This document shows positions 27,501 to 62,580 of a DNA stretch of 64,000 nucleotides, one piece after another. This DNA comes from Pirellulales bacterium (GTDB taxonomy: Bacteria; Planctomycetota; Planctomycetia; Pirellulales; PALSA-1355), in assembly GCA_963733035.1 (NCBI GenBank), contig CAVTBU010000005.1, positions 2,048,001 to 2,112,000 on the forward strand. The letters run 5' to 3'. The notes beneath the pieces were generated by a model. The model made no database searches and had not been told where the DNA came from. It saw only the letters and a list, made by a program, of their open reading frames with translations. The first letter of the stretch is position 1. The number at the start of each line of letters is the position of its first letter. The position numbers and the translations under genes were made by a program.

Positions 27501-28245
27501 GGTAGACGACGTCGTCGACCGCGATCTTGCCCTCAATCTTCGAAACGCTGCGGCCATCGACGACTTTCTCAACCGAGGTGTCGTAAAAAACGCGAATCAG
27601 TTGGGCATTCAAGCTGTACTTGGGATCCATCGCACGCAGCAGCGTCATCGCCGAGAATTTGCCGCTCTGGTCGATCCGCACACTGAGCGTATCCTTCTTG
27701 CTGGTATTCAACTCAATCCAGCTACCGCGCTCGGGAATGATGCGGCAGCTGAAAGTGCGGCGGTCGCCAGCCTCGAGTTCGCTGACGAAGTCGACGCCGG
27801 GGCTACGGTGCAACTGACTAACCACGACGCGTTCCGCACCGTTGATGATGAACTCGCCGCCGCCAAGCATGATCGGCATGTCGCCCAGATAGACTTCTTC
27901 CTCAACTGGTTGCTCCTTCGTAAGTCGCAACCAGACGCGGAACGGCCGGCCGTACGTGAGCCGCAACTGGCGACATTCGTGCGGTTCGTAGCGAGGCTTA
28001 CCCAGTTCGTAGCGAACGTACTCCAGCCGCAGCGTCTTGTCGTAGCTCTCGATTGGAAAGATTTCTCGGAGCACGCCCTCGATGCCTTGATCGGCGCGCT
28101 TGCCGGGCGCGGCATCGTATTGCAGGAACGCCTCATAACTACGCGTCTGGATTTCCGTCAGGTCTGGAATTGCGTGCATCTGACGCAAACTTCCAAAATG
28201 ACGAACTTCCTTGGGACGCAGGCGACGTTCTGCCGATGTGGCCAT
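24536..28245 (-). CDS. rpoB: DNA-directed RNA polymerase subunit beta; one base missing near 27294
   Basis: N-part 27274..28245 ([19 protein letters not shown]) and C-part ([36 protein letters not shown]). Adding one C restores [20 protein letters not shown] (span 3710 nt = 3n+2). Confidence 0.96.
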
Positions 28246-35227: not shown

Positions 35228-36898
35228 TCATGCAGGGCCGGGAACGTCGATTTTCTCTTCCTGAGCCGCGACTCGAAGCTTGTTGAGAGCTCGAGCCTCG
35301 ATCTGACGAACCCGCTCCTTGGTAACACCCATTTCGGCGCCAACTTCTTTCAAAGTCTGGGGTTCGTGACCATGATCGAGGCCAAAGCGGCTGATGATGA
35401 TTTTCTGTTCTCGCTCATCAAGCCGCTCCAGGATTTTGCCGATCTGAGACTCTCTTTGAGCCTGGGCACTCTCCTGCTCGTACTGGTCGGTACGCCGCTC
35501 TTCGGTGCTAGCAAACATCTCCGAGTGACTTGTGCGGAACCGATCACGGTGACGATGTTCATCCGGAATCGTCCGGGCGAAGTTCTTCATGATCGCCCAA
35601 CTGGCATACGTGCTGAACTTGTTGCCGCGGGCGAAGTCAAACTTCTCCACAGCCCGAATCAATGACATGTTGCCGTCGCTGACCAACTCGAAAAAGTTAT
35701 CGGCTTGACCAACGTGCCGCTTGGCGATCGAAACCACCAGACGCAGGTTCGCTCGCACGATCTGATTCTTGAGCGCGACGATCTGGTCATAGAGCTTCTC
35801 GATCTGGTCCATGAGGCTGCTCTTGGCCTTGTTGACGTCGAGCTGATCGCGAAGCTTCGAGGCCTTGTACTTCAGGTAGTTGAACTTACGGAACAAATGT
35901 GCTTCCTGCTCGCGCGTTAGCAACGGAACCTCGTACAGACTAGCCAAATACGGCGGCAATCCACTGGGCAAACGCGTCTTTTTGGTCGGCGTCGGATTTT
36001 CAGGCATCGGCGCCGTGATCGTCTTTTCCGCCGTGGACCGGCCGAAGTACGGGTTCGGAATATAGTCGATCGGCAATTCCAAGATCCGCTGAGCCCGCAT
36101 CTCGTTGATCACGCGGTAGACGCTGGTCTTGGTGCGGTGATAGCGCTTGGCCAGCGTTTCCACGGGGGCGCCGCGACGATATTGCTGGAAAATCCGCCGC
36201 TTGTCGTCGTCTCCCAACGGGCCGGTGTGGTCCGGAAAAATGGCCAGGTCCGGATGTTCCTGATCGAACTGCTTCAAGGTGTATCGCACGGTTTCCACGC
36301 TTCTTCCCATCCTTTTCGCCACGCGCTTGGTGACTTCAGCCAGATTGCCACCGGCACGCGCCAGGCGTCGCGCACGCTCTACCATGTCACTACGCTCGTC
36401 GAGCGTTAGCTGGCTGAACCGAGCCCCGCGCCGAACTCGCTCCTCGTTCTTTGAGACGAAGTTCTCGACCGAACTCTTCAAAAAACCGACTCGTTTTCGG
36501 CCGTCGAAGACAAACCGCCGGCTGACCAGTCCCTGCTGCCGCCAACGCGAGATGGTCTTGGTCGAAACCTTGAACATCTTGCTCAACTCTTCGACCGTCA
36601 GCACGCGCTCGCCGGCACCGCTGGCCGGAACGTCGGCTGCGTCTGACAGATCCTCGACAAACAAGCGCAGATCATGCCCGGCGTCTCGACCCGACAATTT
36701 CAGATTCGGAAACGACTCGGGCCGGTAATCGGTGATCCGGAAACACAGATACTCGTAGGTGTACGTCCGCGACGCATCGAGTTCGGCAATTAGCTTCTCG
36801 GCCCGGTTGACCTGTTCGATCTTCTTCTCCCGGGGAGCAAAACGGACTTGCTGATCTCGCAGCTGGCGGATGATCGCGTTGTGGTAATCAGAATGCAT
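35228..36898 (-). CDS. Sigma-70 family RNA polymerase sigma factor with long N-terminal HTH-containing extension
   Basis: Region 1.2 (PYLASLYEVPLLTREQE), region 2 (ANLRLVVSIAKRH, AVEKFDFARGNKFSTYASWAI), region 4 (TLKEVGAEMGVTKERVRQIEARALNKLR); N-terminal HTH LTVEELSKMFKVSTKTISRWRQQGL. Confidence 0.9.
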   Translation of the reverse strand: MHSDYHNAIIRQLRDQQVRFAPREKKIEQVNRAEKLIAELDASRTYTYEYLCFRITDYRPESFPNLKLSGRDAGHDLRLFVEDLSDAADVPASGAGERVLTVEELSKMFKVSTKTISRWRQQGLVSRRFVFDGRKRVGFLKSSVENFVSKNEERVRRGARFSQLTLDERSDMVERARRLARAGGNLAEVTKRVAKRMGRSVETVRYTLKQFDQEHPDLAIFPDHTGPLGDDDKRRIFQQYRRGAPVETLAKRYHRTKTSVYRVINEMRAQRILELPIDYIPNPYFGRSTAEKTITAPMPENPTPTKKTRLPSGLPPYLASLYEVPLLTREQEAHLFRKFNYLKYKASKLRDQLDVNKAKSSLMDQIEKLYDQIVALKNQIVRANLRLVVSIAKRHVGQADNFFELVSDGNMSLIRAVEKFDFARGNKFSTYASWAIMKNFARTIPDEHRHRDRFRTSHSEMFASTEERRTDQYEQESAQAQRESQIGKILERLDEREQKIIISRFGLDHGHEPQTLKEVGAEMGVTKERVRQIEARALNKLRVAAQEEKIDVPGPA

Positions 36899-37541
36899 GA
36901 CGTGAACCTCTTCGCAGGTTTCGGCGGTGTTCCTTGCGTCTCCAGCGCCCTCTCCGAAACCGACCTCCTGGGGTTGCACGCTCCATCAATGGAACGTGAC
37001 TTTTCCGACGAACGGAATCTCTGCTTCTGCCCCTTGCCGGGCCAGCGACTCACGCATATGAGGCTCCGGCCCCGTTATGTATTCGCTGCCCAAGGTGTTT
37101 GGTTGTCCGAAATCCTCAGGTGTCGAACCGGAACACGGCAATTCGGTGACAAGCCGGGTTTTGCCGGGTATGTGATTGGCGTTCTTACAACCGGCCAGAC
37201 CTGAAATGCATTATTCTCTACGTATAAAAGTCACCACGGATCGTGGGAAGTTCGCGCTACGCTGCTATTTCCGCAGTTTTGCTGGATTTTTCACCCCTTT
37301 CGGTCGCACCCTTGTCCTTATAACAAATATGGCTGATTTCAGCCCACTTGGGTTCGCTAGCAGCCAAATACTTTGCGGCAACTAGCAATACCGGAAATTC
37401 CGTGGTTTTCCCAGCTTCCCATCGCCGAAACTGGTCAACTGCCGGGCTTTTGCGGGTCGATGTATCCTGTTGACTCCCTTGCGTGTTCTGCGTAAGGAGT
37501 ATTGCAAACCTTGTGCCGCATCTCTTCTCGGGGGCCCTGGA

Positions 37542-42930: not shown

Positions 42931-43927
42931 ATGTTTGTCGATTCCGTCAGCATTCACATCGAGGCCGGACGCGGCGGTGACGGTTGCCTCAGTTTTCGCC
43001 GCGAAAAGTTCGTGCCGCGCGGCGGCCCCGACGGCGGCGATGGCGGCAGGGGCGGAGACGTGATCATTGTGGCGACCGCGGGTGTCGACAGCTTGGCGGG
43101 ACTCTCTGGACGCCGTCACTGGAAAGCCGAGCCGGGCGAACGGGGCGGCAGTTCCGCCTGCCACGGTCGCAACGGACACGATCTCATTATCCAGGTACCG
43201 CCCGGCACACTCGTCATTGACGCCGACCGAGGACACGTGATCAAGGACCTCGCGCGAAGCGGATAGCGTGGTGGCGGCCCGCGGCGGCAAGGGGGGCAAA
43301 GGCAACTTGCGATTCAAAAGCGCGACCAACCGGGCCCCTCGCCAATTTACGCATGGCGGCGAACCAGAAGCTCGGCTCATCTCGCTCGAACTTAAGGTCA
43401 TTGCCGATGTTGGGCTGGTCGGCAAGCCCAACGCGGGCAAGAGCACGCTACTCAGCCGCCTTTCGCGAGCACGACCCGAGATCGCAGCCTATCCATTTAC
43501 AACCAAACACCCAAACCTCGGCATCGTGCCGCTCGGCCCGGATCGATCGTTCGTGCTGGCCGATATACCGGGTTTGATCGAGGGCGCCCACACCGGCGCG
43601 GGCTTGGGGCATGAGTTTCTCAAGCACATCCAGCGGGCCGGCATCTTGGTGCACTTGGTCGAACCCATGCCAGCCGATGGCAGCGATCCCCTTGAGAACT
43701 ATCGTGTCGTGCATGGGGAACTTGAGCAGTATGATGAATCCTTGGCCCAGCGACCGGAGATTGTCGTCGTGAGCAAGGCCGAATTGCCCGGGTCGGCGGA
43801 GGTCCGCGAAACTCTGGCAAGACAGCTTGGCCGTGAGGTGCTGGCTATTTCCGCCGTTACGGGCCAAGGGCTGGATCGATTGCTACACGCACTGACCCGC
43901 GAACTCGACGCCCGCACGGAGGGCTGA
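42931..43927 (+). CDS. obgE: GTPase Obg/CgtA; indel near 43255-43262
   Basis: MFVDSV...[21 protein letters not shown] in one frame; [37 protein letters not shown] in the next. Span is 997 nt = 3n+1. Confidence 0.94.
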
Positions 43928-48775: not shown

Positions 48776-49696
48776 TTAGACCGGCAGCGGTTCGACGTCG
48801 ACCGAGACGTTCATGGCATGTTCTCCCCCGCCGATGAAGACACCTTTAATGGGACAAACGTCGCTGTAGTCGCGACCCCAGGCGACCGTGATGTGTTCGA
48901 GCGACGGCACGACATTGTTTGTCGGATCGAAATCGACCCAGCCGAACCGCGGACACCAGGCCGACACCCAGGCGTGCGAGGCGTCCGCGCCAATCAGACG
49001 CGGCTGTCCGGGCGGGGGAGTCGTCAGCAAGTAACCACTGACGTAACGCGCTGGTAGTCCGAGAGATCGAAAGCAGCCGATTTGCAAGTGGGCAAAATCC
49101 TGGCACACACCGCGCCGCATTTCGAGCACCGTCTCCAGCGGCGTGGCGACGTTGGTGGCGGTCGGATCGTACGAAAAATCGCCGTGGATCCGAGCCATCA
49201 ACTCAAGCGACGCATCGAGCCACGGCCGCCCAGGCGTGAACGAAAGCTTCGCAAAATCGGCCAGCGACAAAAGTGCTGTCACGTGCGGCGAATCATAGAT
49301 GAATTGGCGCACCTCCAAATCGTCGCGCACCGGACCACGTTGCAGACCGGCAATTTCCTCCCACGCGGTTGTCTTATCGGGCGGCAAATACTCCGCAGTA
49401 TGCAGCTCGACTTCACTGTGCGCGGCCACTGACAATTCGTGATGGCGATCTTGAATCGTAAAGAATTGAATCGGGTTGCCAAAGTAGTCGCGGGATTCGT
49501 CGATCTTGTGCGGCAGGGGATTGATTTCCAACCGGTGCGAGCGACACGTTTGCCGGGCGGTGTCGCGCGGCTTGACGTGCAGTTCGTTCTGGCATAGCGG
49601 CACCCCCTCGCTGTAGAGGTAGCGCGTGGCATGCGAGACGCGGTAGCGCGTTCGCGTCGCGCCATTTGACGAACCGAGTTTTGCGCCTGGAGTCAT
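48776..49696 (-). CDS. Transglutaminase family protein (bacterial N-terminal domain plus core)
   Basis: YRVSHATRYLYS, DYFGN, RGVCQDFAHL (Cys), ARYVSGY, SHAW (His), GWVDFDPTN (Asp), WGRDYSDVCP. Confidence 0.92.
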   Translation of the reverse strand: MTPGAKLGSSNGATRTRYRVSHATRYLYSEGVPLCQNELHVKPRDTARQTCRSHRLEINPLPHKIDESRDYFGNPIQFFTIQDRHHELSVAAHSEVELHTAEYLPPDKTTAWEEIAGLQRGPVRDDLEVRQFIYDSPHVTALLSLADFAKLSFTPGRPWLDASLELMARIHGDFSYDPTATNVATPLETVLEMRRGVCQDFAHLQIGCFRSLGLPARYVSGYLLTTPPPGQPRLIGADASHAWVSAWCPRFGWVDFDPTNNVVPSLEHITVAWGRDYSDVCPIKGVFIGGGEHAMNVSVDVEPLPV

Positions 49697-49699
49697 GAT

Positions 49700-52252
49700 C
49701 TATCCGCGTCCGATTTCCGCCAATTGGTGCGCCGGTCCAGCATGGACCAGATACTTGTGCGAAATAGCGCTGGCCAGATCGCGAAGCTTGCCCGCGGAAT
49801 CTTCCAGCATCCTGTCTAGCTTGCCGCGCTGTCCCCGTTCGTCGGGATCGGCCAATGCGTGTACGTCGGCCAAGCGCACGGTCGACACGACCGAAAGGAC
49901 GAGCCGTTGCTCGTCGCTCAGCAGCGGATCGCCCACGGCGCGCGGCAACCGCTCCACGTGGTGGGCCAGGGCTGCAAGTTGATAAGCGATGGCCCGAGGG
50001 TTCGTCTCGTCGGTGATCAGCAGATCCAACAACGGCGCCAATTGCAGGTTGGTGGCGTAGCGGTTGCGATAGGTCATCGAGCTATCAGCGATCTCAAGAA
50101 GCGCTTCGAGCACCGCGTGTTCGCCGCCGGACGCCGTGGACAAGGTGCCTCGCAGTAGCGAAATCATCGCCAGCGCGCGCTCGATCCGGCGGCCCAAATC
50201 GAGAAACTGCCAGCCGGGCCCGCGGGTCATGTTTTCGGTCGCCACGCCGGCAAATGCCGAAAAATTGAAGATCATCTGGTTGAGCATTGCCAACACGTCG
50301 GCGGCTGCAACGTTTCCGCGCGGAAATGACGGCCGGAAGTCGTCGTCCACTCGCTTGAGAATTCGCCACGAGTCGACCGATATCCGATCTCGCACAACCT
50401 TGGCCACGCGGGCCAGTTCCGCAAGAATTGATTGTAGGCTTCCGGGCTGATGCTCGTCGTAGAGAAACTCCATCACGAGCAGCTCCATCGTCGAGACTGT
50501 GCCCGGACTGGAGATTTCGTCAGGCGCGGGAGACAACGGCCCGCAGAGCGCACGGTAGAGCAGGGCAAGTTCCCCCAGGCTACCGGGAGCCGTCTCGCTG
50601 ATTAATCGCGTGAAAATGCTGCGGAGCAACCGCGCCGATCCTTCGGCCCGTTCGACATGCCGGCCGAGCCAGAACAGATTGTCGGCGACGCGGCTCGGCA
50701 GATCGATGCCACTACGACGCGGTTCGACCGGCGTTCCCGGCGCTTGCAGCAGGCTGACTGGCGCCACCGGACCGTCGGCAAGCACCCACACGTCCTTGCT
50801 GCCATGGCCGACGAACAAAGAGTCACCTAGCGTGGCGGGGGACGTGCTGACGTGGGCGAGCGCACCGGGCATTACGTGGTACCCTCCTTCACCGGCAACG
50901 AGAAACGTTCGCAGCGCAATGTGTCCGGGTTTTAGCGACTCATCGTTCCAGACAGGGGCCGTTGACCGCACGACAAGCTCCTGGGCCACGAACTTCGCCG
51001 GCGAGGCCTGGATCTCAGCCGCCAGCCTTTGGCGCATGGCCGGTTCGAGCGACGCCGCGTGCACCGGCTTGCGGCCAGGATGCGGCACGGTTGGACCAAT
51101 CACCAGCCGTTCAAGATTCTCCAGCACGAATTCGCGAGAATCCTCGTCGCCGCACCACCAGGTGCGCACCGACGGAATTTGCAGCTCCTCACCCACGAGA
51201 CGCCGGCAAAGCTCTGGCAGAAAGGCCATCAGGGCGGGTGTTTCCACCAACCCACTTCCCAACGAATTCGCGACAAGAACTTGACCCGACCTCGTGGCGT
51301 TCACAAGACCTGGCACGCCCACGCTCGAATGTCCGTCGAGTTCGAGCGGATCGCAATCCTGATCCATCACGCGACGCAACACGGCGTCGACGCCAACCAG
51401 GCCACCCAGCGTCTTTAGGAACACACGGTTGTCGCGCACCGTCAGATCCTCGCCCTCTACGAGCGTGTAGCCAAGATATCTCGCGAGATACGAGTCCTCG
51501 AAATACGTCGGGCTACTGGGCCCGGGGCTGAGCAACACGATATGCGGCGATTGGCCGCGGCTTGCGGCCAGACTTCCCAGCCGCTGGCGAAGCTTGATGA
51601 AGAAGCCCGCCAACCGCTCAACCTGGCAATGGTGGAAGATGTGCGGCACCATCCGCGAAATGACGATCCGATTCTCCACCGCATAGCCTGGCCCGACGGC
51701 CGCCTGCGTGCGATCGGCCACGACCCACCACGTGCCATCCGGCGATCGTGCCAAATGTGCCGTGTAAAGGTGCAAGTGGCAGTCCTCAGGTACGCGGATA
51801 TCATGACACGGCCGGAGGAAGTCTGGATTGGCAAACACGAGCTCCGGCGGCACCAGACCTTCGCGTACTAGCTGCCGGGGCCCGTAAAAATCGGCCAGGA
51901 TCGCGTTGAGCAACCGCGCCCGCTGGGTCAGCCCTGCGGACAGGACGGTCCACTCGGCATGGCGCATGACGAGCGGCAGAGCGTCGAGTTCCCAGCGTCG
52001 ATCGCGCCCCTGCGGATCACCGTGCACGTTGTACGTGATGCCGTTCTCATGAATCAAACGTTTGGCATGTTGCCAGCGGCGTTCGAGTTCGCCGCGCCCG
52101 AGCGCGTTGAGCAATTGAAAGAATTCCTGCCACTGCGGACGGAGCGTACCGCCGGAGTCGACCAATTCGTCATACACGCCTGGCAGCGGTTGATAGCCGG
52201 CGAGGAGGCTCTCGGCGGCGGGCTTTGCACGGGAAGCTTGCGAGGGGTTCAT
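49700..52252 (-). CDS. Circularly permuted type 2 ATP-grasp protein fused to alpha-E domain
   Basis: ENGITYNVHGDP, YFEDSYLARYLG, GSKDVWV, then alpha-E LPSRVADNLFWLGRHVERAE and FLDLGRRIERA. Confidence 0.88.
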   Translation of the reverse strand: MNPSQASRAKPAAESLLAGYQPLPGVYDELVDSGGTLRPQWQEFFQLLNALGRGELERRWQHAKRLIHENGITYNVHGDPQGRDRRWELDALPLVMRHAEWTVLSAGLTQRARLLNAILADFYGPRQLVREGLVPPELVFANPDFLRPCHDIRVPEDCHLHLYTAHLARSPDGTWWVVADRTQAAVGPGYAVENRIVISRMVPHIFHHCQVERLAGFFIKLRQRLGSLAASRGQSPHIVLLSPGPSSPTYFEDSYLARYLGYTLVEGEDLTVRDNRVFLKTLGGLVGVDAVLRRVMDQDCDPLELDGHSSVGVPGLVNATRSGQVLVANSLGSGLVETPALMAFLPELCRRLVGEELQIPSVRTWWCGDEDSREFVLENLERLVIGPTVPHPGRKPVHAASLEPAMRQRLAAEIQASPAKFVAQELVVRSTAPVWNDESLKPGHIALRTFLVAGEGGYHVMPGALAHVSTSPATLGDSLFVGHGSKDVWVLADGPVAPVSLLQAPGTPVEPRRSGIDLPSRVADNLFWLGRHVERAEGSARLLRSIFTRLISETAPGSLGELALLYRALCGPLSPAPDEISSPGTVSTMELLVMEFLYDEHQPGSLQSILAELARVAKVVRDRISVDSWRILKRVDDDFRPSFPRGNVAAADVLAMLNQMIFNFSAFAGVATENMTRGPGWQFLDLGRRIERALAMISLLRGTLSTASGGEHAVLEALLEIADSSMTYRNRYATNLQLAPLLDLLITDETNPRAIAYQLAALAHHVERLPRAVGDPLLSDEQRLVLSVVSTVRLADVHALADPDERGQRGKLDRMLEDSAGKLRDLASAISHKYLVHAGPAHQLAEIGRG

Positions 52253-52510
52253 CCGCGCCGTTCGTCGCTGGTTTTCAAGAGATTCGCCGTTGTTCGTTCG
52301 TCGAGAATCAAAGCCACAAGTGGCCTGACCCCCTATTATCGCAGATACCCGCCCACACGGAAGGTCATACCCGACGGCCAGCAAACCCACCCGCGCTCAA
52401 CAACGTCGTTCCGTTGGAGTTGTGCGAACAACCCGCGCCACCGACAATCGCGTCGCAATCGAACGTCGGGATCGGCAGCATCCCTTCGCTCCGCCCCTGT
52501 CTTTTTCCGG

Positions 52511-53497
52511 TTACTGTTGAAACGCACGTTGTGCGTGCCCTACCGGGCGCATGGCGAAAAACGTCTCATGGATTGCTTCGCCCACTTGGTTCAAATGCAC
52601 CTGGAACGTATCGATGAATTCATGCAAACCCTGCTCGATGATTTCGCTGATCTGAGTGTAGTCGAGTTGCGAGCGCAGTCGACCCAGTCGCTTCTCGGGG
52701 ATGGTGTGGAAATGTCCGCGCTGGCCGCCCGTGATTGACAAGAGCGACTCCTCGGCCTTGATCAGGCAGAAATGAATCGCGCGGGGGAACTCGCGGTCGA
52801 GAATCAGAAAATCCGCAACCTGAACTGGAAGGATTCGCCCAAATCGTTTGCGGTACATTTCCAGCGCGCTGGCGCTTTCCAGCAGCGCCGACCACTGCAC
52901 CGTGTCGAGCGGAGTGCCCACGTCGGCGGCGGCGGGCAGGAGCACGTAATATTTCACGTCCAGAATGCGGGACGTCTTGTCGGCCCGTTCCAACAGCCGG
53001 CCCATGCGGGCGAAGTGCCAAGCCTCGCCGTGCGACATCGTGGCCACGGTAATTCCCTCCAACAAGTGGCTGGCGAGTTTTACCTCGTTGAAGAACTCGT
53101 AGGCCGAATCCCAAATGTTGGGGTTGGACTTTGCCGAACGCACCATCAGAAAGAATTTATTGAGCTCCTCCCACATCGAGGAACTGATCATTTCGCGCAC
53201 CGTGCGGGCGTTCTCGCGTGCCATCCGCAAGCAGGACAGTATCGAATTCGGGTTGCGCTGGTCAAAGGTCAGAAACTCAATCGCCTTGTGGCGGTCAGGC
53301 TCGCCATAGAGTTCGCGAAACAGCTCGTCGTCGCCGGTCGTTACGACCAGCGGCGCCCACTGATCGGCCGGGTGGATCTCCTCGGCGCCGACGTCCATGG
53401 CCAACTGCAGGTTGACATCGATGAACCGCGCCACGTTCTCGGCGCGCTCAATGTACCGGCTCATCCAAAAGATCGAATCCGCCACACGACTCAGCAT
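52511..53497 (-). CDS. Alpha-E domain protein (DUF403-like)
   Basis: MLSRVADSIFWMSRYIERAEN, ARENARTVRE, GRLLERADKTSRILDVK, FPRAI. Confidence 0.92.
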   Translation of the reverse strand: MLSRVADSIFWMSRYIERAENVARFIDVNLQLAMDVGAEEIHPADQWAPLVVTTGDDELFRELYGEPDRHKAIEFLTFDQRNPNSILSCLRMARENARTVREMISSSMWEELNKFFLMVRSAKSNPNIWDSAYEFFNEVKLASHLLEGITVATMSHGEAWHFARMGRLLERADKTSRILDVKYYVLLPAAADVGTPLDTVQWSALLESASALEMYRKRFGRILPVQVADFLILDREFPRAIHFCLIKAEESLLSITGGQRGHFHTIPEKRLGRLRSQLDYTQISEIIEQGLHEFIDTFQVHLNQVGEAIHETFFAMRPVGHAQRAFQQ

Positions 53498-53512
53498 GGG
53501 CCAAGCACCGCC

Positions 53513-54961
53513 TTATTTGAGACAGCCGTTTTTCAAGACCCACGTATCCTTGCTACCGCCACCCTGCGACGAGTTCACCACCAGCGAGCCCTTCTTCAGC
53601 GCGACGCGCGTCAGTCCGCCAGGTAGCACGTAGATATCCTTGCCATAGAGGATATAAGGCCGCAAATCGACATGCCGACCTTCGAGCTTGTCTTCCACAA
53701 CCGTGGGCACCTGCGACAGCGACAGCATCGGCTGAGCCACATAGTTTCGCGGGTTGGCACGGATCAGCTCGCGGTACTTGTCGTGTTCCTCTCGAGAGGC
53801 CTTGGGGCCGAGCAAGATGCCATAGCCGCCCGACTCATTCGCCGGCTTGACGACAAGTTTGTCGATGTTGATCAGCACGTGCTCGCATTGTTGCGGATCG
53901 CCGCATACGAATGTCGGCACATTGGGCAACAGAATGTCTTCACCCAAGTAGTACTTGATCATGTCGGGCACATAGGCATACACGGCTTTGTCGTCGGCAA
54001 TGCCAGTGCCGGGGGCATTCGCCAGTGCTACGCGCCCCGATCGATACACGTCGATCAACCCTGGCACACCTAGCGTCGAATCGGCGCGGAACGTTAGCGG
54101 GTCGAGAAAATCGTCATCGAGTCGACGATAAATCACGTCCACGCGCTCGAAACCACTCGTGGTGCGCATGTAGACATAGCCGTCAATCACCACCAGGTCC
54201 GAACCCTGCACCAGTTCGACGCCCATTTGCTGGGCCAGGAAGCAATGCTCGAAGTAAGCCGAGTTGTAGATGCCCGGCGTCATCACCACGACGTTCGGAT
54301 CGCCGACCGACGGCGGCGCAATGTACTGCAACATGCGCAGCAGTTGTTCTGGATAATCCTCGACGGGTTGAATCGACAGCCCTTCGAAGATCTGCGGAAA
54401 CGTCCGCTTCATCACTTCGCGATTTTCGAGCACATACGACACGCCCGACGGACAGCGGAGGTTGTCTTCAAGCACATAGAATTGCCCATCGCCGTCACGC
54501 ACGAGGTCCGTACCCGTGATGTGGCACCAAATACCGTGCGGCGGGTCGAGTCCGGCGCAGCGCGAGAGCAAATTCTTCCCGGAGTCGATCAACCAGTCGG
54601 GAACAACCCCTTCCTTGATGATCCGCCGCTCATGGTAAATGTCGTCGATGAACAGATTGAGCGCCTGGATGCGCTGTTTCAAGCCACGTTCGACGTGGTG
54701 CCACTCTCGCGAGGAAATGATGCGCGGCACGATGTCAAACGGCCACACCTTCTCCGTACCGGCCTCGTGACCGTAGACGTTGAACGTGATGCCCATATTT
54801 AGCAGGGCCAGATCGGCGGCCTTCTGCCGCCGCTCGAGTTCGCCGTCCGACAGCGCGCTTAGACGCTGCGTGAGCATCTGCGCGAGCGGCCGAGGGTGGC
54901 CGTCGGACTCGAACATCTCGTCGTAGAATCCGCCGGTTTGATAGGCGTCGAACTTGACCAT
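53513..54961 (-). CDS. Circularly permuted type 2 ATP-grasp protein
   Basis: [55 protein letters not shown]...[15 protein letters not shown]. Confidence 0.93.
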
Positions 54962-55386: not shown

Positions 55387-55797
55387 CTAGAGTGCGTAGC
55401 GACGACGGAAAAAGATGAGGAAATACACCAGCGCACCGACGGCCAAGGCAATCGCCGATGGCTCGGGGACCACGCTGATCATCCCTGGAGGGGCAGTTGC
55501 ACCGTGGCTCGACTTGGCGGCAAGCCCATCGTCGTCGATTCCAACGTGCGACGGTTCAGCCAATGTCACTGGCCATGAGTCTTCGGAGAGCGTGCCTGGC
55601 GTAACAGCCGGCCGATCACCTGTTGACACGGAAACTTCCGCGTCGCTGGTTCCGGTCTGCGGCTCGGCCGTGGTGCTGATCGTCACGGGCTTACCTGCCA
55701 ACAGGTCGTCCACCTGATCCGCATAACTGAAAGTGTCGCCAGCGTTTAGCGCTAAGAGAAGAGTGCCGATCACAATAGCGGTCCGGGTGGTCTTCAT
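55387..55797 (-). CDS. Small PEP-CTERM (exosortase-sorted) protein
   Basis: Signal peptide MKTTRTAIVIGTLLLAL; C-terminal VPEPSAIALAVGALVYFLIFFRRR. Confidence 0.85.
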   Translation of the reverse strand: MKTTRTAIVIGTLLLALNAGDTFSYADQVDDLLAGKPVTISTTAEPQTGTSDAEVSVSTGDRPAVTPGTLSEDSWPVTLAEPSHVGIDDDGLAAKSSHGATAPPGMISVVPEPSAIALAVGALVYFLIFFRRRYAL

Positions 55798-56176
55798 CAG
55801 CGACCCTTCCACGTGCTTTGGCTCTTGCATCGATAGATTTCCGGTCTCGGCGATTCATCCAAAATGCCATAACTTGATGGCACACCGCCGAAATCAACCA
55901 TGTGACACATTATGTCAACGATAAAACGGACTGCAACCAGAAAATTCCCGAACTTAAGGATTTTTAGCGCAAATACGCCAATCACCGTCCGGTATTACGC
56001 TCCACGGCAAATATGTGGAGCGAATGCCAAGATTCAGCGGCCGCGAGTTCCTTCCAGTGGTTCTTTAACAGATCATCCCCGCAGTCCGAAACCACCCCGT
56101 CGAAAATCCGGGCTCCCCCTCCAGGCTGCCAGCATTCCGCGGTTGCACGGATCGTCGCCCCGAGGCGCTTTCCCAG

Positions 56177-57664
56177 TCAATTCCCTTCGCGCGCCGAGCG
56201 CTTCATGAGTTCAATATTTCGCTCGGTGTCACTTGGCCCCTTGGCCGACTTCCGCCGCCCCCCCAGGTACACGGCCATGTCGCTGTCGTACATCGCCTCC
56301 GGTTCGGGCTGGCGTCCGAAGTCACCGGTGGACGTCTCCCAAGCCGCAAGACGCTCGCGAAGTTGCCCAAGCACCGCCGAATAATCCGGATTGTCGGCCA
56401 GGTTCGTCAACTCATGCGGATCCGCTTCGAGGTCGTACAACTCCTCGGCCGGACGCGTGGGAGCAAACAGCAGCTTCTCTTGAAGTTGATTGAGTTGACC
56501 GTCTGCGTGCAGCTCGCGCAGCCGCTGAATGATCGCTTTGCCGTCCTTGTATGCGTTTGGCTGCAAGTGTGGTCGTTGGTTCAGATAGTTGCGGATGTAC
56601 TTAAACTGCTCGGTGCGCACGGCACGAATGTGCTCCACCGTCTCATCGCAACGGTCGCGAGCGGAGAATACCGCGTCGCGCGGCCGATAGTCCGTCGCCA
56701 ACAGATCGCGGCCTTGCATCCACTTGGGCACGTCGATGCCGGCGAGCGCCAATGATGTCGCGGTCATATCAATGTGCTCGATCAGATCGTCGCGAACGGC
56801 ACCGGCCGGGATACCCGGCCCACGAATCACAAACGGCACGTGAATTCCTTCGTCGTACAGGAACTGTTTTCCGCGGGCATGGCTGATACCGTGATCGGTC
56901 ATGAAAAACACGACCGTCTCGTCGAGGATTCCTTCGTTTTCGAGCCGCATCATGACGTCGCCAACTTCCTTGTCGGTGTAACGCACGGAGTCGAGATAAC
57001 GAGCCCAATCTTCCACGAGCACAGGGTCGCGCGGATAGTATGGCGGCAAAACGACCACCTCGGGTGACACGTTGCTGCCTAGTTCGCGAAACACCCGCTT
57101 CGCCCAGGCGTCGTATTGCTGGGGATGAGCGCCGCGGTACTTGCCGCCATGCAGCTCAACTTGCATGAAGAACGGTTGGCCTGGCTGGCGGCCTGCCCAG
57201 TCGCCTGCATCGTAAATCGCCGGATCCCACTCGAAGTTGTAGTCGGTTTTGCCCAGCCGCCCGGATTTAACTCCTGGCCCACCGATGCATGTGTAGTATC
57301 CCGCCCGCTTGAACAGCGCCGGCACCGGTTCCACGCCGTCTGGCAAATGAATCTTGAGTTCACCGCGTCCGCTACGGTGATGATGCGCACCGATGGTGGT
57401 TTGGTAGCAACCGGTGATCAATGCGGAGCGGCACGGCGAACATACGGGAGCTGTGACAAACGCCCTGGTAAACCTCGTACCCTCTCGTGCCAAGCGATCG
57501 ACGTAAGGCGTCTTGATGGCCGTCTCGCCATAGCAGGAAAAGTTCGCCGACATGTCGTCGACGAAAATCCAGACAATGTTGGGCCGCGCCGCCGGAGCGG
57601 AATGAACTGGCACAACGTTCAACGTAACGACCAGCAGGAGAGACAAACGGAGTCTTCGGAGCAT
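56177..57664 (-). CDS. Exported sulfatase (formylglycine-dependent, Cys type)
   Basis: RPNIVWIFVDD, CSPCRSALITG (CxPxR), TDHG, YDEGIHVPF, ELYDLEADPHE. Confidence 0.93.
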   Translation of the reverse strand: MLRRLRLSLLLVVTLNVVPVHSAPAARPNIVWIFVDDMSANFSCYGETAIKTPYVDRLAREGTRFTRAFVTAPVCSPCRSALITGCYQTTIGAHHHRSGRGELKIHLPDGVEPVPALFKRAGYYTCIGGPGVKSGRLGKTDYNFEWDPAIYDAGDWAGRQPGQPFFMQVELHGGKYRGAHPQQYDAWAKRVFRELGSNVSPEVVVLPPYYPRDPVLVEDWARYLDSVRYTDKEVGDVMMRLENEGILDETVVFFMTDHGISHARGKQFLYDEGIHVPFVIRGPGIPAGAVRDDLIEHIDMTATSLALAGIDVPKWMQGRDLLATDYRPRDAVFSARDRCDETVEHIRAVRTEQFKYIRNYLNQRPHLQPNAYKDGKAIIQRLRELHADGQLNQLQEKLLFAPTRPAEELYDLEADPHELTNLADNPDYSAVLGQLRERLAAWETSTGDFGRQPEPEAMYDSDMAVYLGGRRKSAKGPSDTERNIELMKRSAREGN

Positions 57665-57863
57665 CGACGGAAACCTCCAGTGCAATGGTTGGCACGCGGG
57701 CTGGCTACCAGCCTAATAGAGCGCACTGGCCGGCTCAAATCGCAACCCCCGGACAGCCCGTTCCTGCTCGGCGCCGTCCCGTGGTGCGCCCACTTCCTTT
57801 TGCGACGTCGCTCGCATGCCGGCCGGGGTTGGAGCGTCAATTGACGGACGGAAATCAAAGATG

Positions 57864-57902
57864 TTGACACGACGTGTTATTTCGACAATACTGTCGAAAT
57901 AA
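57864..57902 (+). promoter_or_regulatory. Sigma-70 promoter overlapped by a perfect inverted repeat (putative TetR operator)
   Basis: TTGACA (57864-57869)-N17-AATACT (57887-57892); TTATTTCGACA-atac-TGTCGAAATAA at 57877-57902, ending 17 nt before the tetR ATG. Confidence 0.8.
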
Positions 57903-57919
57903 GGTTGAGGGACTTCGAT

Positions 57920-58501
57920 ATGCCGAAACTCGTCGACCACGACAGCCTGCGGCGTCAAATTCGTGCGGCCGCGACAGAGGTATTTGCCGCGCGCGGCGTC
58001 AAAGGCACTGGCCTGGCTCACGTTGCCGACGCGATGGGCATTGGCCGCTCAAGTCTCTACCACTACTACTCCGACAAGGCCACGCTGATTGCGGATATCG
58101 CCAGTGATCTGCTTGCGCGGGAAGCCAAGATGTTCCGCGAAGCCTTGGAGGATGACCGACCCGTTGAACAGAGACTAAACACGTTAATCCGCCAGCTCAC
58201 AAGCGTACTGGACGAGTGGGCCGCGGTCGGACCGGCAGTGCTCGATCTGCGCTCGGTAACGAGTCCTCAGTTCCGGAAGTTTTACCGTCGGATCCGTCAG
58301 GACCTGGCCGCGCTTATTGCCGAAGGGCAGCGGGCTGGCCAGTTTGGAACGCAACTCAGCGCGGACCACGCCTCGAGCCTTGTCATTGCAATCGTCGACG
58401 GATTGCTACTGCAGTACATGGCCGATGCGCGGGCGATTCCTCGCGGTCGACAACTTGAGCGTCTTTTGGCATGGTCCATTTGGAGACTCCTTCAGCCATG
58501 A
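57920..58501 (+). CDS. TetR/AcrR family transcriptional regulator
   Basis: MPKLVDHD..RRQIRAAATEVFAARG..GTGLAHVADAMGIGRSSLYHYYSDK HTH. Confidence 0.93.
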   Translation: MPKLVDHDSLRRQIRAAATEVFAARGVKGTGLAHVADAMGIGRSSLYHYYSDKATLIADIASDLLAREAKMFREALEDDRPVEQRLNTLIRQLTSVLDEWAAVGPAVLDLRSVTSPQFRKFYRRIRQDLAALIAEGQRAGQFGTQLSADHASSLVIAIVDGLLLQYMADARAIPRGRQLERLLAWSIWRLLQP

Positions 58502-59147
58502 GCACACTTGCGCTAATGCGATGGCTTGAGTCGGCTCCCGATCGCTACGACTGGGGAATGATTGCACTGACGCTTGGACGGGTGCGCGAGCTTCATCGGG
58601 CCATCGCCACCGCGGCGGTGCGCTCGGCCGGCACCAGGGTGCTCGAAATCGGCTGCGGAACGGGAACGGTTACGTGGTTGATGGCCGAATTGGGCGCGAT
58701 TGTAACCGGCGTCGACCAGAATCCGCAAATGCTTGAAATCGCCCGTCAGCGACTGACGAAGTATGCCGGGATTGAATTCGTCGAACAGACCGCCGCGGAA
58801 ATCGACTCATTTGGCGACGGCGCCTTCGACGCGGTCGTGGCAAGCCTGTCGCTGTCAGAAATGTCGAGCGATGAGCGAATCTATGTGTTCCAGCAGGCCA
58901 GAAAGCTGCTCGCCGACAATGGAGTTTTGGTGGTCGGCGACGAAGTGATTGCCCGGCCCTATTGGGCCCGAGTGTTGCAATTTGTCCTGCGACTGCCTCA
59001 AGCGCTAATGGGCTGGATTCTGGTTGGCAGCGTCTCGCGCCCATCCGCGATCTGCCCGGCGAATTACATCGCGCTGGCTTCGAAGTACGGCAAGAACGGT
59101 TCTTCCTAATGCGAACATTGACGGTAGTCGTTGCCGAGCCCGAATGA
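58498..59147 (+). CDS. Class I SAM methyltransferase, CpaM-like (corrinoid protein-associated); one C missing near 59041
   Basis: MSTLALMRWLESAPDRYDWG, VLEIGCGTG (motif I), GVDQNPQML, FDAVVASLSLSEM. C-terminus IRDLPGELHRAGF...VVAEPE* lies in the next frame. ATGA overlaps at both ends. Confidence 0.8.
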
Positions 59148-60271
59148 TGCGTACACTTCCCAAACGCTTCGTGCATCTATTGCTGGATGTTCTTCAGACC
59201 ATCTTCCGCATGCTTCCGTGGCCCACGCAGACCGGGTTGCGAATCATCGGAAACCCAGGACCCACGAGTCCCGTGTTGATCACGGGGAACTACGATTTGA
59301 CCGTGCGTCGCCTGTTGCGCGCCATGCGGGGATACGACGCCTGGCTGATCGTCGCGCCGTCGCAGGGCGTCAACGTCTGGTGTGCCGCGGCGGGCGGACA
59401 TTTCGGAACGCATCAGGTCGTCACCGCAATCAAGACCTCGGGCATCGAACAGCGCGTTCAGCACCGCCATGCGATTCTGCCGCAATTGGCCGGCACGGGC
59501 GTTGTCGCGCAAGATGTCGCTCGCCGCGTCGGCTGGCGCGTGGCATTTGGTCCCGTTTACGCGAAGGATTTGCCGGCCTTTCTCAACGCCGGACAGCAAG
59601 CCACCGCCGCGATGCGCCGCGCCCATTTCACGCCGCGCGAGCGGCTGGAAATGATGATCGCCTGGGCGGCACCGACCAGCCTCGTGTTGGCCATTGGTTT
59701 TGGCCTCCTTGCGAGGGAGTGGCTCTTACCGGTGCTGGTTCTCACCTGGATCTTGGCCGCGACCGTTTACCTATTTGTATTCGAGTGGATCCCCGGCCCT
59801 CGCAAAGTCGTGCTGGCCGCAATTTCGACGGGCCTGGCCTCCGCCTACGTTTTCACCACTGGCGGGAGCACCCTGACAACCGTCGCTGCCGGAGTCATCG
59901 CGTTCGGCCTCGCGTGGCTGCTGTCCTTCGATTACACCGGCTCGACACCCGATCACGCGGTCGATCATTTTGACGAATCGGACTTTCACATCGCGCTGGA
60001 CAAGGACCGCTGCACCGGTGCGTTCGTGTGCTTGAAAGTCTGCCCCGAGGGCGTGTTCGAACCAGCAGCCAAGGCGAAGAAGATCGACCTCGTGCATGGC
60101 GAACAATGCGTGCGCTGCGCGGCCTGCATTGTCCAGTGTCCAAGAGATGCGCTTTTTCTAGAAGACCATCAAGGCCGCCGTATCACGCCTGACGTCATTC
60201 GTCAATTCAAGCTCAATCTGCTCGGCCGTCGCGCGACTGTGGCGGCCGGCTCGAATACGTCACGCGAATAA
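59144..60271 (+). CDS. Fused HgcAB-like protein: corrinoid-binding (CdhD/HgcA-like) domain, about 4 TM helices, ferredoxin domain
   Basis: IGNPGPTSPVLITGNYDLT, GVNVWCAAAGGHFGT cap helix, ILPQLAGTGV, FGPVYAKDLPAFL; hydrophobic helices; CTGAFVCLKVCP and CVRCAACIVQCP. Confidence 0.88.
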   Translation: MMRTLPKRFVHLLLDVLQTIFRMLPWPTQTGLRIIGNPGPTSPVLITGNYDLTVRRLLRAMRGYDAWLIVAPSQGVNVWCAAAGGHFGTHQVVTAIKTSGIEQRVQHRHAILPQLAGTGVVAQDVARRVGWRVAFGPVYAKDLPAFLNAGQQATAAMRRAHFTPRERLEMMIAWAAPTSLVLAIGFGLLAREWLLPVLVLTWILAATVYLFVFEWIPGPRKVVLAAISTGLASAYVFTTGGSTLTTVAAGVIAFGLAWLLSFDYTGSTPDHAVDHFDESDFHIALDKDRCTGAFVCLKVCPEGVFEPAAKAKKIDLVHGEQCVRCAACIVQCPRDALFLEDHQGRRITPDVIRQFKLNLLGRRATVAAGSNTSRE

Positions 60272-60327
60272 GTCGCGTGGCCGAGTGAATTCCGTGACTC
60301 GTGGCACCGCTCCAACTGGGCACTCCG

Positions 60328-61323
60328 TCACTTCGACGCGGCCTTTTCCGACGGGTACTTTTCGTCAAAACGTTTCATGATTTCCTTCCAGTTGGTGAAC
60401 AGCACTCCCTCGCGTTCGAAGAAAGCCAGCACGTCCGGGTCGTCGAACATCTGGGCTTCCCAGCTTCGTTGTCGCCAGCTGCCAGTAATGTGCTTGAGAC
60501 CCTCGGTCAGCGTGGAGGGATGAAAGATAATCTCGTTCAACCCCGGCGAAAGCGAACGCATGAGTTCGTAAAACTTCTGTTTCTTGTCTTCGTAATTTTC
60601 TCCGTCGAGCGTGGAGTTGAAGTCGTCGAGCTTCGGCAGCTTATAGTTCTGCATCAACTCCAGGCCTTGTTTCGTGATCGGGTAGCCCTTCTTGCGAAAC
60701 TTTTCAATCACAGCGGGCGTCGGCTCCACGACCATCGCGGGAATGTGGTACTCCTCCGCCACGGTCATGTAGGCCTTCGTATAGTCAGGACGCGCGTAGA
60801 GCGTGCCCATGTGGGTGTCGATATGGCTGGGGCGAATACCGCGCGAAATGGCTCGTTCGACCTGAGCACGGATTTCCGTTTCGATCTCCTCGGCCGAGGC
60901 ATGCGTGGCTGTGTCGATCACGTCGCGACGGAGATAGCCGTCTTCGTCGACCATGCCGGGTACCTTGTCCTTGCCGGCCACGGGCGGCCAGCGGTACCAC
61001 TTCCATTCGCTGTTCATCGCCAAGTGCAGCCCCATGTCGTGCTGCGGATTCTCCTTGTACCAATTGGCGATTTCGTTGAACCAAGGGCAGGGGACCATCA
61101 TTGCGGCCGATTGAATCCGCCCGTTCGACAGGTAGTTCTTGGCCGCGTCGTTCGCCTCGTAGCACATGCCAATGTCGTCGGCATGCAGGATCAGAACGAT
61201 CTTGCCCGAGGGATAGCCGAGTTTTTCGGCCCAGGTTTCGGCACGCGCCGAGAGCGACGCGGCGAGAGTAACGAATCCAAACAAAACGGCGAAGCGAAAC
61301 CAGGACGAAGTTGAGCGATGCAT
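60328..61323 (-). CDS. Exported YdjC/ChbG-family carbohydrate deacetylase
   Basis: LILHADDIGMC, MVPCPWF, GLHL, PSHIDTHMG, EIIFHP; signal peptide. Confidence 0.85.
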   Translation of the reverse strand: MHRSTSSWFRFAVLFGFVTLAASLSARAETWAEKLGYPSGKIVLILHADDIGMCYEANDAAKNYLSNGRIQSAAMMVPCPWFNEIANWYKENPQHDMGLHLAMNSEWKWYRWPPVAGKDKVPGMVDEDGYLRRDVIDTATHASAEEIETEIRAQVERAISRGIRPSHIDTHMGTLYARPDYTKAYMTVAEEYHIPAMVVEPTPAVIEKFRKKGYPITKQGLELMQNYKLPKLDDFNSTLDGENYEDKKQKFYELMRSLSPGLNEIIFHPSTLTEGLKHITGSWRQRSWEAQMFDDPDVLAFFEREGVLFTNWKEIMKRFDEKYPSEKAASK

Positions 61324-61497
61324 GACTTGGAAGATCCCGGGGAGAGCGGACGATGATGGTTGGCCACCGCACGCGGGCGGCGAGTTCGATTGTGGATGCC
61401 GGTCGCGCGGGCGTCAAGCAATAGCGAGTCCCCTTGCGCGATGGCTGGCCGCCGTCCGGTCAGGCTGCGAAAAGATCGCTTCGCAATCAGAGTTTGA

Positions 61498-62580
61498 CTA
61501 CGGCCTACCCCCTGTGATTGCCGATTCGTCGAACGTAGCCACGTTAATCTGGCTCCGCGCGTGCGATGTGTACACCAGGCGAATCTTGCCGTCCTTGCCC
61601 TGAATGGCATACGGATAGGCATAGTCAAAGTCACCGGTCGCGATATTCCGGCGGTGTGGCCAGGTCTTGCCGCCGTCGGTCGAAATGGCGGCGGTCAAGG
61701 GCGTCCTGTTGACTGGGCTGTCGTTGTACACGAGCAGCAAATGTCCATTCTTCAGCTTCAGCAGGTCGACGGCGGCGTTTGGATTGGGAAACTCAGTGTC
61801 GGTTCCTTCGCTCCAAGTTTGCCCGCCATCGTGCGACTCAGCCCGGACGATGAATCCCTCGGTCCCCGGGCCATAACCGCCCCCACGGCGACAATAGGCT
61901 AGCAGGTCGTTCTCGGTCAATTGAACCACCGACGGCTGAATATTGCCGCGCTTCGAGCGAATCGGCTCCGAGCGGTTCCATCGCTTGGTCTTCGGATTGA
62001 ATCGCAAGAACAGCGACACGCTGTCCGAACCCACCAGTTCGGTATCGTGCCCGGTTTCACGATAGACCGGTAGCAGATACTCGCCGCTCTCGAGCAACAG
62101 AGGTCGGCTGCGAACCATCATGCCTTCTTCGAGGGCCACCAAAAAGGAATCGCTCCAGGTATGTCCGCGATCATGCGAAAGCTTGGCAGCGATTCGCGAC
62201 GTGCTCCAGGTATCGCCGAACCGCACGACGTAAAACAACCACACGACGCCGTCGGGGGCTTGCCACACCACGGCGTTGCCGTCGGAATAGAAGGGCGTGT
62301 CGGCAATGACCTCGGGCTCAGACCATTTGGATTCGCCCACCTTCTTGCGCATGCCGTAGTCGGCGGTCACGTCGGCATACTCGCCGTCGCCACCGTAATA
62401 CGCGATGTATAAGTCGCCGTTGTCGAACTCTTCGATTGTCGCCGGATGCTTATACTTGCCGGGATATTCGGGGCCAATCACTCGCTCGAATTGAATATCA
62501 TCGGCCGCTTCGGCAAGCGGCGCCGCTACCAGGCTAGCGGCGAGGGACAGAAACAGAACGGGTAGAACAGGGAACTTCAT
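61498..62580 (-). CDS. Exported BNR/Asp-box sialidase-like beta-propeller protein
   Basis: Asp boxes SHDRGHTW, SHDGGQTW, STDGGKTW; FPNPNAA, RTPL, YAYP; signal peptide. Confidence 0.85.
   Translation of the reverse strand: MKFPVLPVLFLSLAASLVAAPLAEAADDIQFERVIGPEYPGKYKHPATIEEFDNGDLYIAYYGGDGEYADVTADYGMRKKVGESKWSEPEVIADTPFYSDGNAVVWQAPDGVVWLFYVVRFGDTWSTSRIAAKLSHDRGHTWSDSFLVALEEGMMVRSRPLLLESGEYLLPVYRETGHDTELVGSDSVSLFLRFNPKTKRWNRSEPIRSKRGNIQPSVVQLTENDLLAYCRRGGGYGPGTEGFIVRAESHDGGQTWSEGTDTEFPNPNAAVDLLKLKNGHLLLVYNDSPVNRTPLTAAISTDGGKTWPHRRNIATGDFDYAYPYAIQGKDGKIRLVYTSHARSQINVATFDESAITGGRP

Follow-up and report, generated by a model that had tools for sequence, protein, structure and literature searches.

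A TetR-associated cassette encoding a CpaM-type methyltransferase and an HgcAB-like fusion protein in a Pirellulales genome

A 64,000-nucleotide stretch of the genome of a Pirellulales bacterium (contig CAVTBU010000005.1 of assembly GCA_963733035.1, positions 2,048,001 to 2,112,000 of the forward strand; hereafter the window) carries three plus-strand open reading frames (ORFs), flanked by a divergent sulfatase gene on one side and a convergent YdjC-like gene on the other. The first encodes a TetR-family repressor (tetR), the second a class I S-adenosylmethionine (SAM) methyltransferase of the corrinoid protein-associated type (CpaM), and the third a single chain in which a corrinoid-binding domain, a membrane domain and a ferredoxin follow one another, as in a fusion of the mercury methylation proteins HgcA and HgcB (Table 1). 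Judged by curated family models, the cassette is an ordinary member of a known, widespread and functionally uncharacterised family. Family membership and operon structure taken alone are regarded as nearly certain, and the complete statement, i.e. a TetR-repressed operon of the catalogued CpaM and HgcAB-like fusion pair that works by the mechanism proposed below, as likely. A sequence-only reading of the same locus, which preceded this analysis, had named it the best candidate for an undescribed system; this description cannot be upheld, as curated NCBIfam models exist for both CpaM and the HgcAB-like fusion, the family is large, and fused HgcAB proteins have been in print since 2015 (Podar 2015) and form a clade of their own (Lin 2023). 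Among the papers listed by a literature search, none dealt with CpaM as a corrinoid protein-associated methyltransferase.

Table 1. Coordinates of the cassette, its sequence features and its flanking genes in the window
Feature	Position	Strand	Details
Sulfatase gene	56177-57685	minus	Divergent flank of the cassette
Sigma-70-like promoter	57864-57892	+	TTGACA 57864-57869, 17-nt spacer, AATACT 57887-57892; 10/12 matches
TetR operator candidate, inverted repeat TTATTTCGACA-N4-TGTCGAAATAA	57877-57902	.	11-nt arms, 100% complementary; overlaps the -10 hexamer
tetR, TetR-family repressor, 193 aa	57920-58501	+	PF00440, TetR_C_6
cpaM, corrinoid protein-associated SAM methyltransferase	58498-59147	+	58498-59109 as given; 59147 needs one restored base
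Frameshift site, CCC run one base short relative to relatives	59040-59042	+	1-nt gap relative to L100 and L099
HgcAB-like fusion gene	59144-60271	+	NF043039; 375 aa from ATG 59144, 374 aa from the conserved ATG 59147
Corrinoid-binding (CdhD/CFeSP-type) domain, residues 25-145	59216-59578	+	PF03599, 46.8 bits
Cap-helix motif NVWCA, residues 77-81, Cys80	59372-59386	+	Within the corrinoid domain
Four transmembrane helices, residues 164-189, 191-212, 220-238 and 243-261	59633-59926	+	AlphaFold2 model
Ferredoxin domain, residues 283-337	59990-60154	+	Fer4 families
Ferredoxin motif 1, C-x5-C-x3-CP, second Cys replaced by Ala	60011-60046	+	Reads C-T-G-A-F-V-C-L-K-V-C-P
Ferredoxin motif 2, CxxCxxCxxxCP	60107-60142	+	Complete
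YdjC-like gene	60328-61323	minus	Convergent flank of the cassette

Both members of the pair exceeded the cut-offs of their dedicated models. CpaM scored 222.2 bits on NF043040 (cut-off 180; ORF as given, profile positions 1-183 of 216), and the fusion protein scored 391.6 bits on NF043039 (cut-off 285; positions 3-349 of 350), or 391.7 bits in the genome search. The sequence-only reading had described an HgcA-like corrinoid domain with an NVWCA cap helix, about four transmembrane (TM) helices and a ferredoxin in one chain, and this description was borne out: the N-terminal domain is recognised by the CdhD-type model PF03599, four helices appear in the AlphaFold2 model, and the C-terminal part belongs to the Fer4 families. 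Additionally, the gamma subunits of the corrinoid iron-sulfur protein (CFeSP; 2h9a and 4c1n) match residues 34-147 of the fusion protein at an E-value of 7e-12. Residues N77, V78, W79, C80 and A81 were invariant among 22 sequences, which places the Cys in an N(V/I)WC cap helix; the helix reads NVWCAAAGG in the window protein, and NVWCAAxGG occurs in most fused members. The first ferredoxin motif of the window protein retains three Cys residues, a site which suggests a [3Fe-4S] or site-differentiated cluster, and 7Fe ferredoxins are among the PDB sequence matches of the fusion protein. This three-Cys motif is found in 38 of 55 fused proteins, and 47 of the 55 have no Cys after the last motif; as aligned, both traits are common in the fused family, though not universal.

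The family to which the pair belongs is extensive, with 1177 proteins at E <= 0.001 among 8000 scored candidates and at least 595 genome stretches in which a family member was confirmed. The synteny survey that the sequence-only reading had called for showed cpaM immediately ahead of the corrinoid gene, as it is in the window, in 71 of the 79 related loci. The eight loci without an adjacent cpaM comprise three that are cut by contig ends or lie on short contigs (L025, L051 and L078), one in which cpaM lies 1.9 kb upstream (L039), and four (L076, L080, L081 and L082) which group with true split HgcA in the tree described below. The junction between the two genes is a 4-nt overlap in 31 loci, as called by a start-codon heuristic, and 12 of the 79 loci encode CpaM and the corrinoid domain in a single ORF. 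Eleven of these single ORFs encode CpaM-HgcA-like proteins of approximately 500-540 aa accompanied by a separate ferredoxin, mostly in Chloroflexota, while the twelfth (L079, 591 aa) holds all three parts in a single chain; the fused architecture was confirmed by NCBIfam for the four that were tested (L064, L070, L075 and L079). By this gene order cpaM is obligately paired with the corrinoid gene, natural single-chain fusions included. One Thermoanaerobaculales contig carries two cpaM-plus-fusion pairs approximately 1.6 kb apart (L073:607-2273 and L073:3879-5575).

The same survey bears on the possibility that the methyl group goes to a biosynthetic or membrane metabolite, namely a natural product, quinone or lipid, and does not serve xenobiotic detoxification, with TetR sensing a pathway intermediate. 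Such a role would suit the membrane domain, which could present a lipophilic substrate, and the next-best families of CpaM, which are UbiE/MenG-type quinone C-methyltransferases (all under their cut-offs, 50 bits vs 158). The TetR-family gene is, however, the sole conserved neighbour of the cpaM/corrinoid pair in the 79 related loci, where no biosynthetic genes recur beside it, and the sulfatase and YdjC-like flanks also occur together in congeners that have no cassette; a biosynthetic function is thus considered unlikely. Among solved structures CpaM matches generic SAM methyltransferases only (best 9fcx, E 7e-14), and these PDB matches suggest no substrate.

Phylogenetic analysis of 88 rows (quick mode with SH-aLRT support only, omitting loci with a cut ORF or an undefined start) placed all 23 split HgcA rows on one side of a branch (SH-aLRT 99) and the window protein on the fused-HgcAB side. 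The window protein pairs with L099 (support 100) inside a 16-row fused clade (support 99), the other members of which derive from metagenome-assembled genomes labelled Myxococcota, 'delta proteobacterium', Gammaproteobacteria and Spirochaetaceae, and the three other copies from Planctomycetota (L074, L084 and L085) fall in three other clades. By tree topology and profile scores, the family of the cassette pair is sister to that of the mercury methylase HgcAB. In a Poribacteria protein (L070:3251-4834) CpaM is fused to an HgcA-like part that scored almost alike on the HgcA model (231 bits) and the fusion model (237 bits); this protein is sister to all split HgcA in the tree (support 99) and may stand as an intermediate between CpaM and the true HgcA lineage.

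The sequence-only reading had taken cpaM as intact, thereby overlooking a frameshift. The frame that opens at 58498 stops at 59107-59109, 35 nt short of the next gene, and cpaM reads as FRAMESHIFTED in the given sequence instead of as a full-length single frame. Positions 1-183 of NF043040 lie in the first frame (frame A) and positions 181-215 in the -1 frame (59034-59147), so that the last 35 family-typical residues are displaced. In the closest relatives, the metagenome contigs L100 and L099, CpaM is 77% and 74% identical, respectively, and is encoded in a single uninterrupted frame, the intact L100 protein scoring 262.1 bits on NF043040 over positions 1-215. Similarly, a contig of the independent run X3, which represents a 96%-identical relative (58667-59501; 34 other letters in 836), carries an extra C behind 59039, i.e. 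C4 in place of the C3 of the window. The frameshift also affects how the genes are joined. Of the two ATGA overlaps claimed by the sequence-only reading, that at 58498-58501 stands and links the tetR stop with the cpaM start; at 59144-59147 the letters are present, and they couple cpaM with the fusion gene only if the base is restored. Furthermore, the conserved start of the fusion gene is the second ATG, at 59147, with which the starts of L099 and L100 align, giving a 1-nt TGATG/TAATG overlap, and the database record P0001 (374 aa) likewise begins there.

Three essential genes of the same window are broken in like manner. The minus-strand rpoB lies in two frames with a break at approximately 27290-27298 (window 27263-27321), its N-terminal piece (27277-28245) matching Rpb2_1 and Rpb2_2 and a second ORF (24539-27172) matching Rpb2_3 to Rpb2_7. 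The plus-strand obg (42931-43924) breaks at approximately 43256-43263, with GTP1_OBG positions 1-108 in 42931-43263 and positions 113-155 plus the GTPase domain in 43268-43924. The minus-strand rpsD (ribosomal protein S4; 944-1568) breaks at approximately 1470-1485, with Ribosomal_S4 positions 1-36 in one frame and positions 42-95 plus the S4 domain in another. Since an organism cannot live with rpoB, obg and rpsD broken, these breaks are most likely indel errors of the assembly, and because these genes are likewise affected and the extra C is present in a close relative, an assembly error is also the most likely cause of the cpaM shift; the cassette is therefore probably intact in the organism. 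Alternatively, the cassette may be decaying: a real 1-nt deletion would remove the last ~35 residues of CpaM, comprising the last two beta-strands of a Rossmann-type fold, leaving a dead methyltransferase and the remnant of an operon. It speaks for decay that cpaM is broken in the sequence as given, that the cassette is accessory in its lineage (see below), and that the 100%-identical run X1 leaves 58472-59311 without a contig, the contigs of X1 and X4 being short and missing this interval, so that the strain itself has no read coverage there. Conversely, the profiles of the three essential genes continue across their frames, the cpaM shift lies at a homopolymer, and the downstream -1 frame is open and family-like up to the conserved stop/start overlap; decay is accordingly judged a rather slim prospect. 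Programmed frameshifting in cpaM was rejected, the relatives being single-frame and three unrelated essential genes being similarly broken.

The TetR protein exceeded the Pfam thresholds of both PF00440, the N-terminal helix-turn-helix (HTH) domain (42.8 bits, cut-off 24), and TetR_C_6 (37.5 bits, cut-off 27), and homologues of 42-49% identity occupy the same position in 10 loci, with alignments that start at residue 1 of the form beginning at ATG 57920. Its nearest solved structures are generic family members, TtgR among them (E ~3e-8), and these PDB matches point to no ligand. Small organic ligands are the typical signals of TetR regulators. A TetR gene lies directly upstream of cpaM on the same strand in 24 of the 64 loci that have at least 700 nt upstream of cpaM, with a 4-nt overlap in 15 of the 24. 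In the single promoter/operator that the sequence-only reading had placed ahead of the genes, the palindrome is perfect and conserved; the promoter match alone is within chance. The core TCGACA-N4-TGTCGA is present exactly, 26-51 nt upstream of tetR, in seven of the 10 closest TetR-bearing loci and with one mismatch in two more, the last (L034) having a variant palindrome, and only one further match to the core at <=1 mismatch was found in those loci of approximately 9 kb each. Across the 6.6-Mb genome from which the window derives, the 14-base core has one exact site, at the cassette operon, and three sites with one mismatch (C4:208828, C7:501401 and C9:137827); at two mismatches there are 63 matches per strand vs 17 for a reversed control. 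By this comparison the candidate operator is conserved in position and sequence, which agrees with the TetR control that had been proposed. An arrangement of -35 hexamer, operator and -10 hexamer is also readable upstream in L006 and L038, and the more distant TetR-bearing loci L017, L055, L056, L062 and L077 have another palindrome of the form GACCGAC-NN-GTCGGTC. The promoter-like site is the sole one in 57600-60500, with 0.7 +/- 0.8 expected in shuffled sequence. A terminator scan gave three weak sites vs 3.2 expected and none after the operon, and a search of 56000-61500 for riboswitches or other RNAs gave no Rfam match at E <= 1.

The proposed mechanism would begin with the release of TetR, by a small ligand, from the palindrome that overlaps the -10 hexamer. 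Cobalamin in the N-terminal domain, with Cys80 of the cap helix as its presumed axial ligand, would then be reduced to Co(I) by the C-terminal ferredoxin domain; CpaM would dock at the cap-helix face and move the methyl group of SAM to Co(I), and the Cys-ligated methyl-Co(III) would hand it to an acceptor at the membrane face, which is probably not mercury. The relay from SAM through CpaM to cobalamin is proposed because CpaM pairs or fuses with the corrinoid protein, because the cap-helix Cys is conserved and because HgcAB offers a precedent, purified HgcAB having been reported to draw on SAM in forming a methyl-cob(III)alamin ligated by a Cys thiolate (Zheng 2024); taken by itself, this relay is marginally favoured. 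Binding between CpaM and the corrinoid domain is supported by a predicted complex of L038 CpaM with residues 1-160 of the corrinoid protein, each with its own alignment. The model reached an ipSAE of 0.62 vs 0.00 for the best control, contacts agreed to at least 81% between runs and partner pLDDT was at least 80. Of 157 solved complexes 116 reached this mark, as did two of 215 mismatched pairs, counts which are rough since own alignments were used. The modelled interface involves CpaM residues 74, 97-103 and 122-129, which flank the SAM-binding motifs (alignment A5), and the helix following the cap helix of the corrinoid domain (alignment A6).

A different use of the same parts has also to be weighed, in which Co(I) itself acts on halogenated or other electrophilic small molecules (dehalogenation) and the ferredoxin, CpaM and SAM constitute only a device for reductive reactivation. 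Methionine synthase provides the comparison for such reactivation. A reducing ferredoxin and a SAM methyltransferase are indeed the parts of such a system, the usual organic ligands of TetR regulators would be in keeping with it, and a 2026 preprint, which is not peer reviewed, describes dechlorination of CCl4 by heterologously expressed HgcAB. That preprint says nothing, however, on fused forms, and the regularity with which CpaM accompanies the corrinoid protein (paired in 71 of 79 loci, fused in 12 of 79) is more readily explained if CpaM donates methyl groups stoichiometrically than if it makes occasional repairs, which makes the dehalogenation scheme improbable. A further reading is offered only tentatively, as possible but not probable: an inducible membrane machine of a biochemically undescribed kind, in which a dedicated class I SAM methyltransferase methylates a Cys-ligated cobalamin that an in-chain ferredoxin of the 7Fe or site-differentiated type keeps reduced, and the methyl group or Co(I) acts on a non-mercury electrophile (a metalloid, small organic or halogenated compound) that is also the TetR ligand, in a planctomycete that is probably aerobic.

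To place the fusion protein relative to the mercury methylase, reference split HgcA/HgcB pairs were taken from metagenome contigs, of which five pairs were checked with NCBIfam together with the HgcA of Syntrophus. The reference HgcA proteins scored 383-502 bits on the HgcA model NF040863 and the HgcB proteins 110-135 bits on their model, and discrimination was reciprocal, as the six true HgcA reached only 190-204 bits on NF043039. The window fusion scored 168.2 bits on NF040863 (cut-off 275) and 46.8 bits on the HgcB model NF040864 (cut-off 99), and it lacks one of the two CxxCxxCxxxCP motifs of HgcB. The HgcA cap-helix motif ends in GK: NVWCAAGKG is present in 18 of 23 split HgcA, as opposed to NVWCAAAGG in the window. 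The fifth of the five TM helices of HgcA (Zheng 2024) has no counterpart in the fusion protein by alignment. Furthermore, the 'GVGC' Cys that follows motif 2 and corresponds to Cys73 of ND132 HgcB is absent, as is a Cys-rich tail, there being no Cys after residue 332; the C73A substitution in HgcB abolishes methylation and a double C94/C95 mutant loses 95% of activity (Cooper 2020). The fused-HgcAB carriers P. furiosus and M. methylutens produced no methylmercury above controls in published tests, which Capo 2022 summarises. An ArsR-like regulator has been reported beside hgcAB, and among the papers listed by a literature search none linked TetR with hgcA or hgcAB, although such a link may exist. 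Given the scores below the HgcA and HgcB cut-offs, the absence of the HgcB cysteines and the methylmercury-negative cultured fused carriers, the substrate is probably not mercury, in agreement with the view of the sequence-only reading. That the fusion is nonetheless a working mercury methylase, the single-chain equivalent of HgcA plus HgcB, is very improbable: it shares the corrinoid domain, the NVWC cap helix with its conserved Cys, the membrane domain and the ferredoxin, and Podar 2015 cautions that the negative P. furiosus result is no proof against mercury methylation, but it falls outside the split-HgcA side of the tree, has four TM helices and neither of the Cys features that Cooper 2020 describes as needed, and is accompanied by a TetR rather than an ArsR-like regulator.

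Besides the broken cpaM and the missing read coverage over it, several observations weigh against the reading of the cassette as a TetR-repressed operon of a cobalamin-dependent methyl-transfer pair. The binding of cobalamin, the use of SAM by CpaM, the way in which the methyl group moves, the acceptor and the inducer are all inferred. The score of the predicted complex is the model's own confidence and not a measurement, and the AlphaFold2 model of the fusion protein is mediocre, with a mean pLDDT of 68.4 and values below 50 at the cap helix. As the alignment stands, the three-Cys ferredoxin motif is not family-wide, since 12 of the 55 fused proteins have two complete motifs. The promoter match, taken alone, is not significant. 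TetR lies, on present gene-order counts, outside the core system, because it accompanies the pair in only 24 of the 64 loci. Finally, a search of the genome, which is 92% complete, gave no CobS (PF02654).

Regarding the host, the best named matches of EF-Tu are to Planctomycetota/Pirellulales at 90-97% identity, which supports the planctomycete origin suggested by the sequence-only reading. The genome encodes a full B12-dependent MetH (1694.6 bits), and the host is therefore predicted to use cobalamin. The cassette was found in none of 30 relatives (three of the same genus, 15 of the same family and 12 of the same order), and in a sample of the phylum three of 401 genomes were over the cut-off, the window genome G000 included. 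The same-genus genomes G401 and G403 keep the sulfatase and YdjC-like flanks at 73-79% nucleotide identity, and the slot between them (L189, C4:206900-211400 in G401; L190, C1:456300-461000 in G403) holds a gene of approximately 1300 aa with DUF5060, beta-lactamase-like and Pec_lyase domains and no cassette. Because relatives are without the cassette and its slot in G401 and G403 is filled by this pectate-lyase-type gene, the cassette is, by genome comparison, accessory in the host lineage. GC content is 0.59-0.62 over the operon, similar to the flanks, and this composition is without sign of recent transfer.

Elsewhere in the window, a minus-strand cluster at 48779-54961 contains genes of the circularly permuted ATP-grasp, Alpha-E and transglutaminase-like types, comprising two CP_ATPgrasp_2 proteins, two Alpha-E domains and one Bact_transglu_N/Transglut_core protein. 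A small secreted-looking protein is encoded at 55387-55830 (minus) and has no Pfam match at 1e-5; its tail, consisting of VPEPS, a hydrophobic stretch and RRR, resembles a PEP-CTERM sorting tail. At 35231-36979 (minus) lies a 583-aa sigma-70-type protein with regions 2 and 4, the N-terminal half of which gave several additional helix-turn-helix matches.

The family stands as closest sister to the methylmercury-forming enzyme, and environmental surveys of hgcA routinely pick up its members and then discard them. The identity of its substrate would show the role of this chemistry outside mercury and would sharpen hgcA-based risk estimates. The window copy adds little alone. Three leads are nevertheless apparent, namely that CpaM appears to be a built-in SAM module, obligately paired, fused in 12 loci and modelled to dock on the corrinoid protein; that the conserved candidate TetR operator offers a handle for a ligand screen which could reveal the substrate; and that the mercury-handling cysteines are missing. 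Additionally, the frameshift serves as a warning that the assembly has indel errors even in essential genes.

Of the known systems, the closest is the CpaM plus HgcAB-like fusion family itself (NF043040 with NF043039, the 'fused HgcAB' of Podar 2015, Gilmour 2018, Capo 2022 and Lin 2023), with which the cassette shares passing scores on both models, the order corrinoid-TM-ferredoxin, an upstream cpaM with overlapping stop and start, and NVWCAAxGG. Nothing essential sets it apart, the tetR in front of the window copy being found in the proportion of loci given above. HgcA/HgcB share a CFeSP-type corrinoid domain with a cap-helix Cys, a membrane domain and a dicluster-type ferredoxin, and SAM is the methyl source of HgcAB (Zheng 2024, in the part represented here); the cassette differs in its four rather than five TM helices, its dedicated SAM methyltransferase and its TetR in place of an ArsR-like regulator, and its fusion protein in a first Fe-S motif without the second Cys and in the lack of both a Cys73 equivalent and a Cys-rich tail. 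AcsC/CdhE, the large subunit of the corrinoid iron-sulfur protein in the Wood-Ljungdahl pathway, belongs to the same PF03599 cobalamin-domain fold family. The cassette, unlike AcsC/CdhE, has neither a TIM-barrel methyltransferase partner nor an acetyl-CoA synthase context, and its corrinoid protein is membrane-anchored, with a presumed Cys ligation and presumably SAM rather than methyl-tetrahydrofolate as methyl donor. The reactivation of MetH and the TsrM-type enzymes (named in Zheng 2024) would be alike in principle, a low-potential reductant giving Co(I) and SAM methylating it; the cassette is not a member of either group, having no radical-SAM domain and no MetH modules, and its SAM site is on a separate class I methyltransferase. 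Lastly, autoregulated TetR-family operons of the TetR/QacR/TtgR type share the N-terminal HTH and a palindrome, in the cassette a candidate operator, over their own promoter, whereas the TetR of the cassette would govern a methyl-transfer pair and not an efflux pump.

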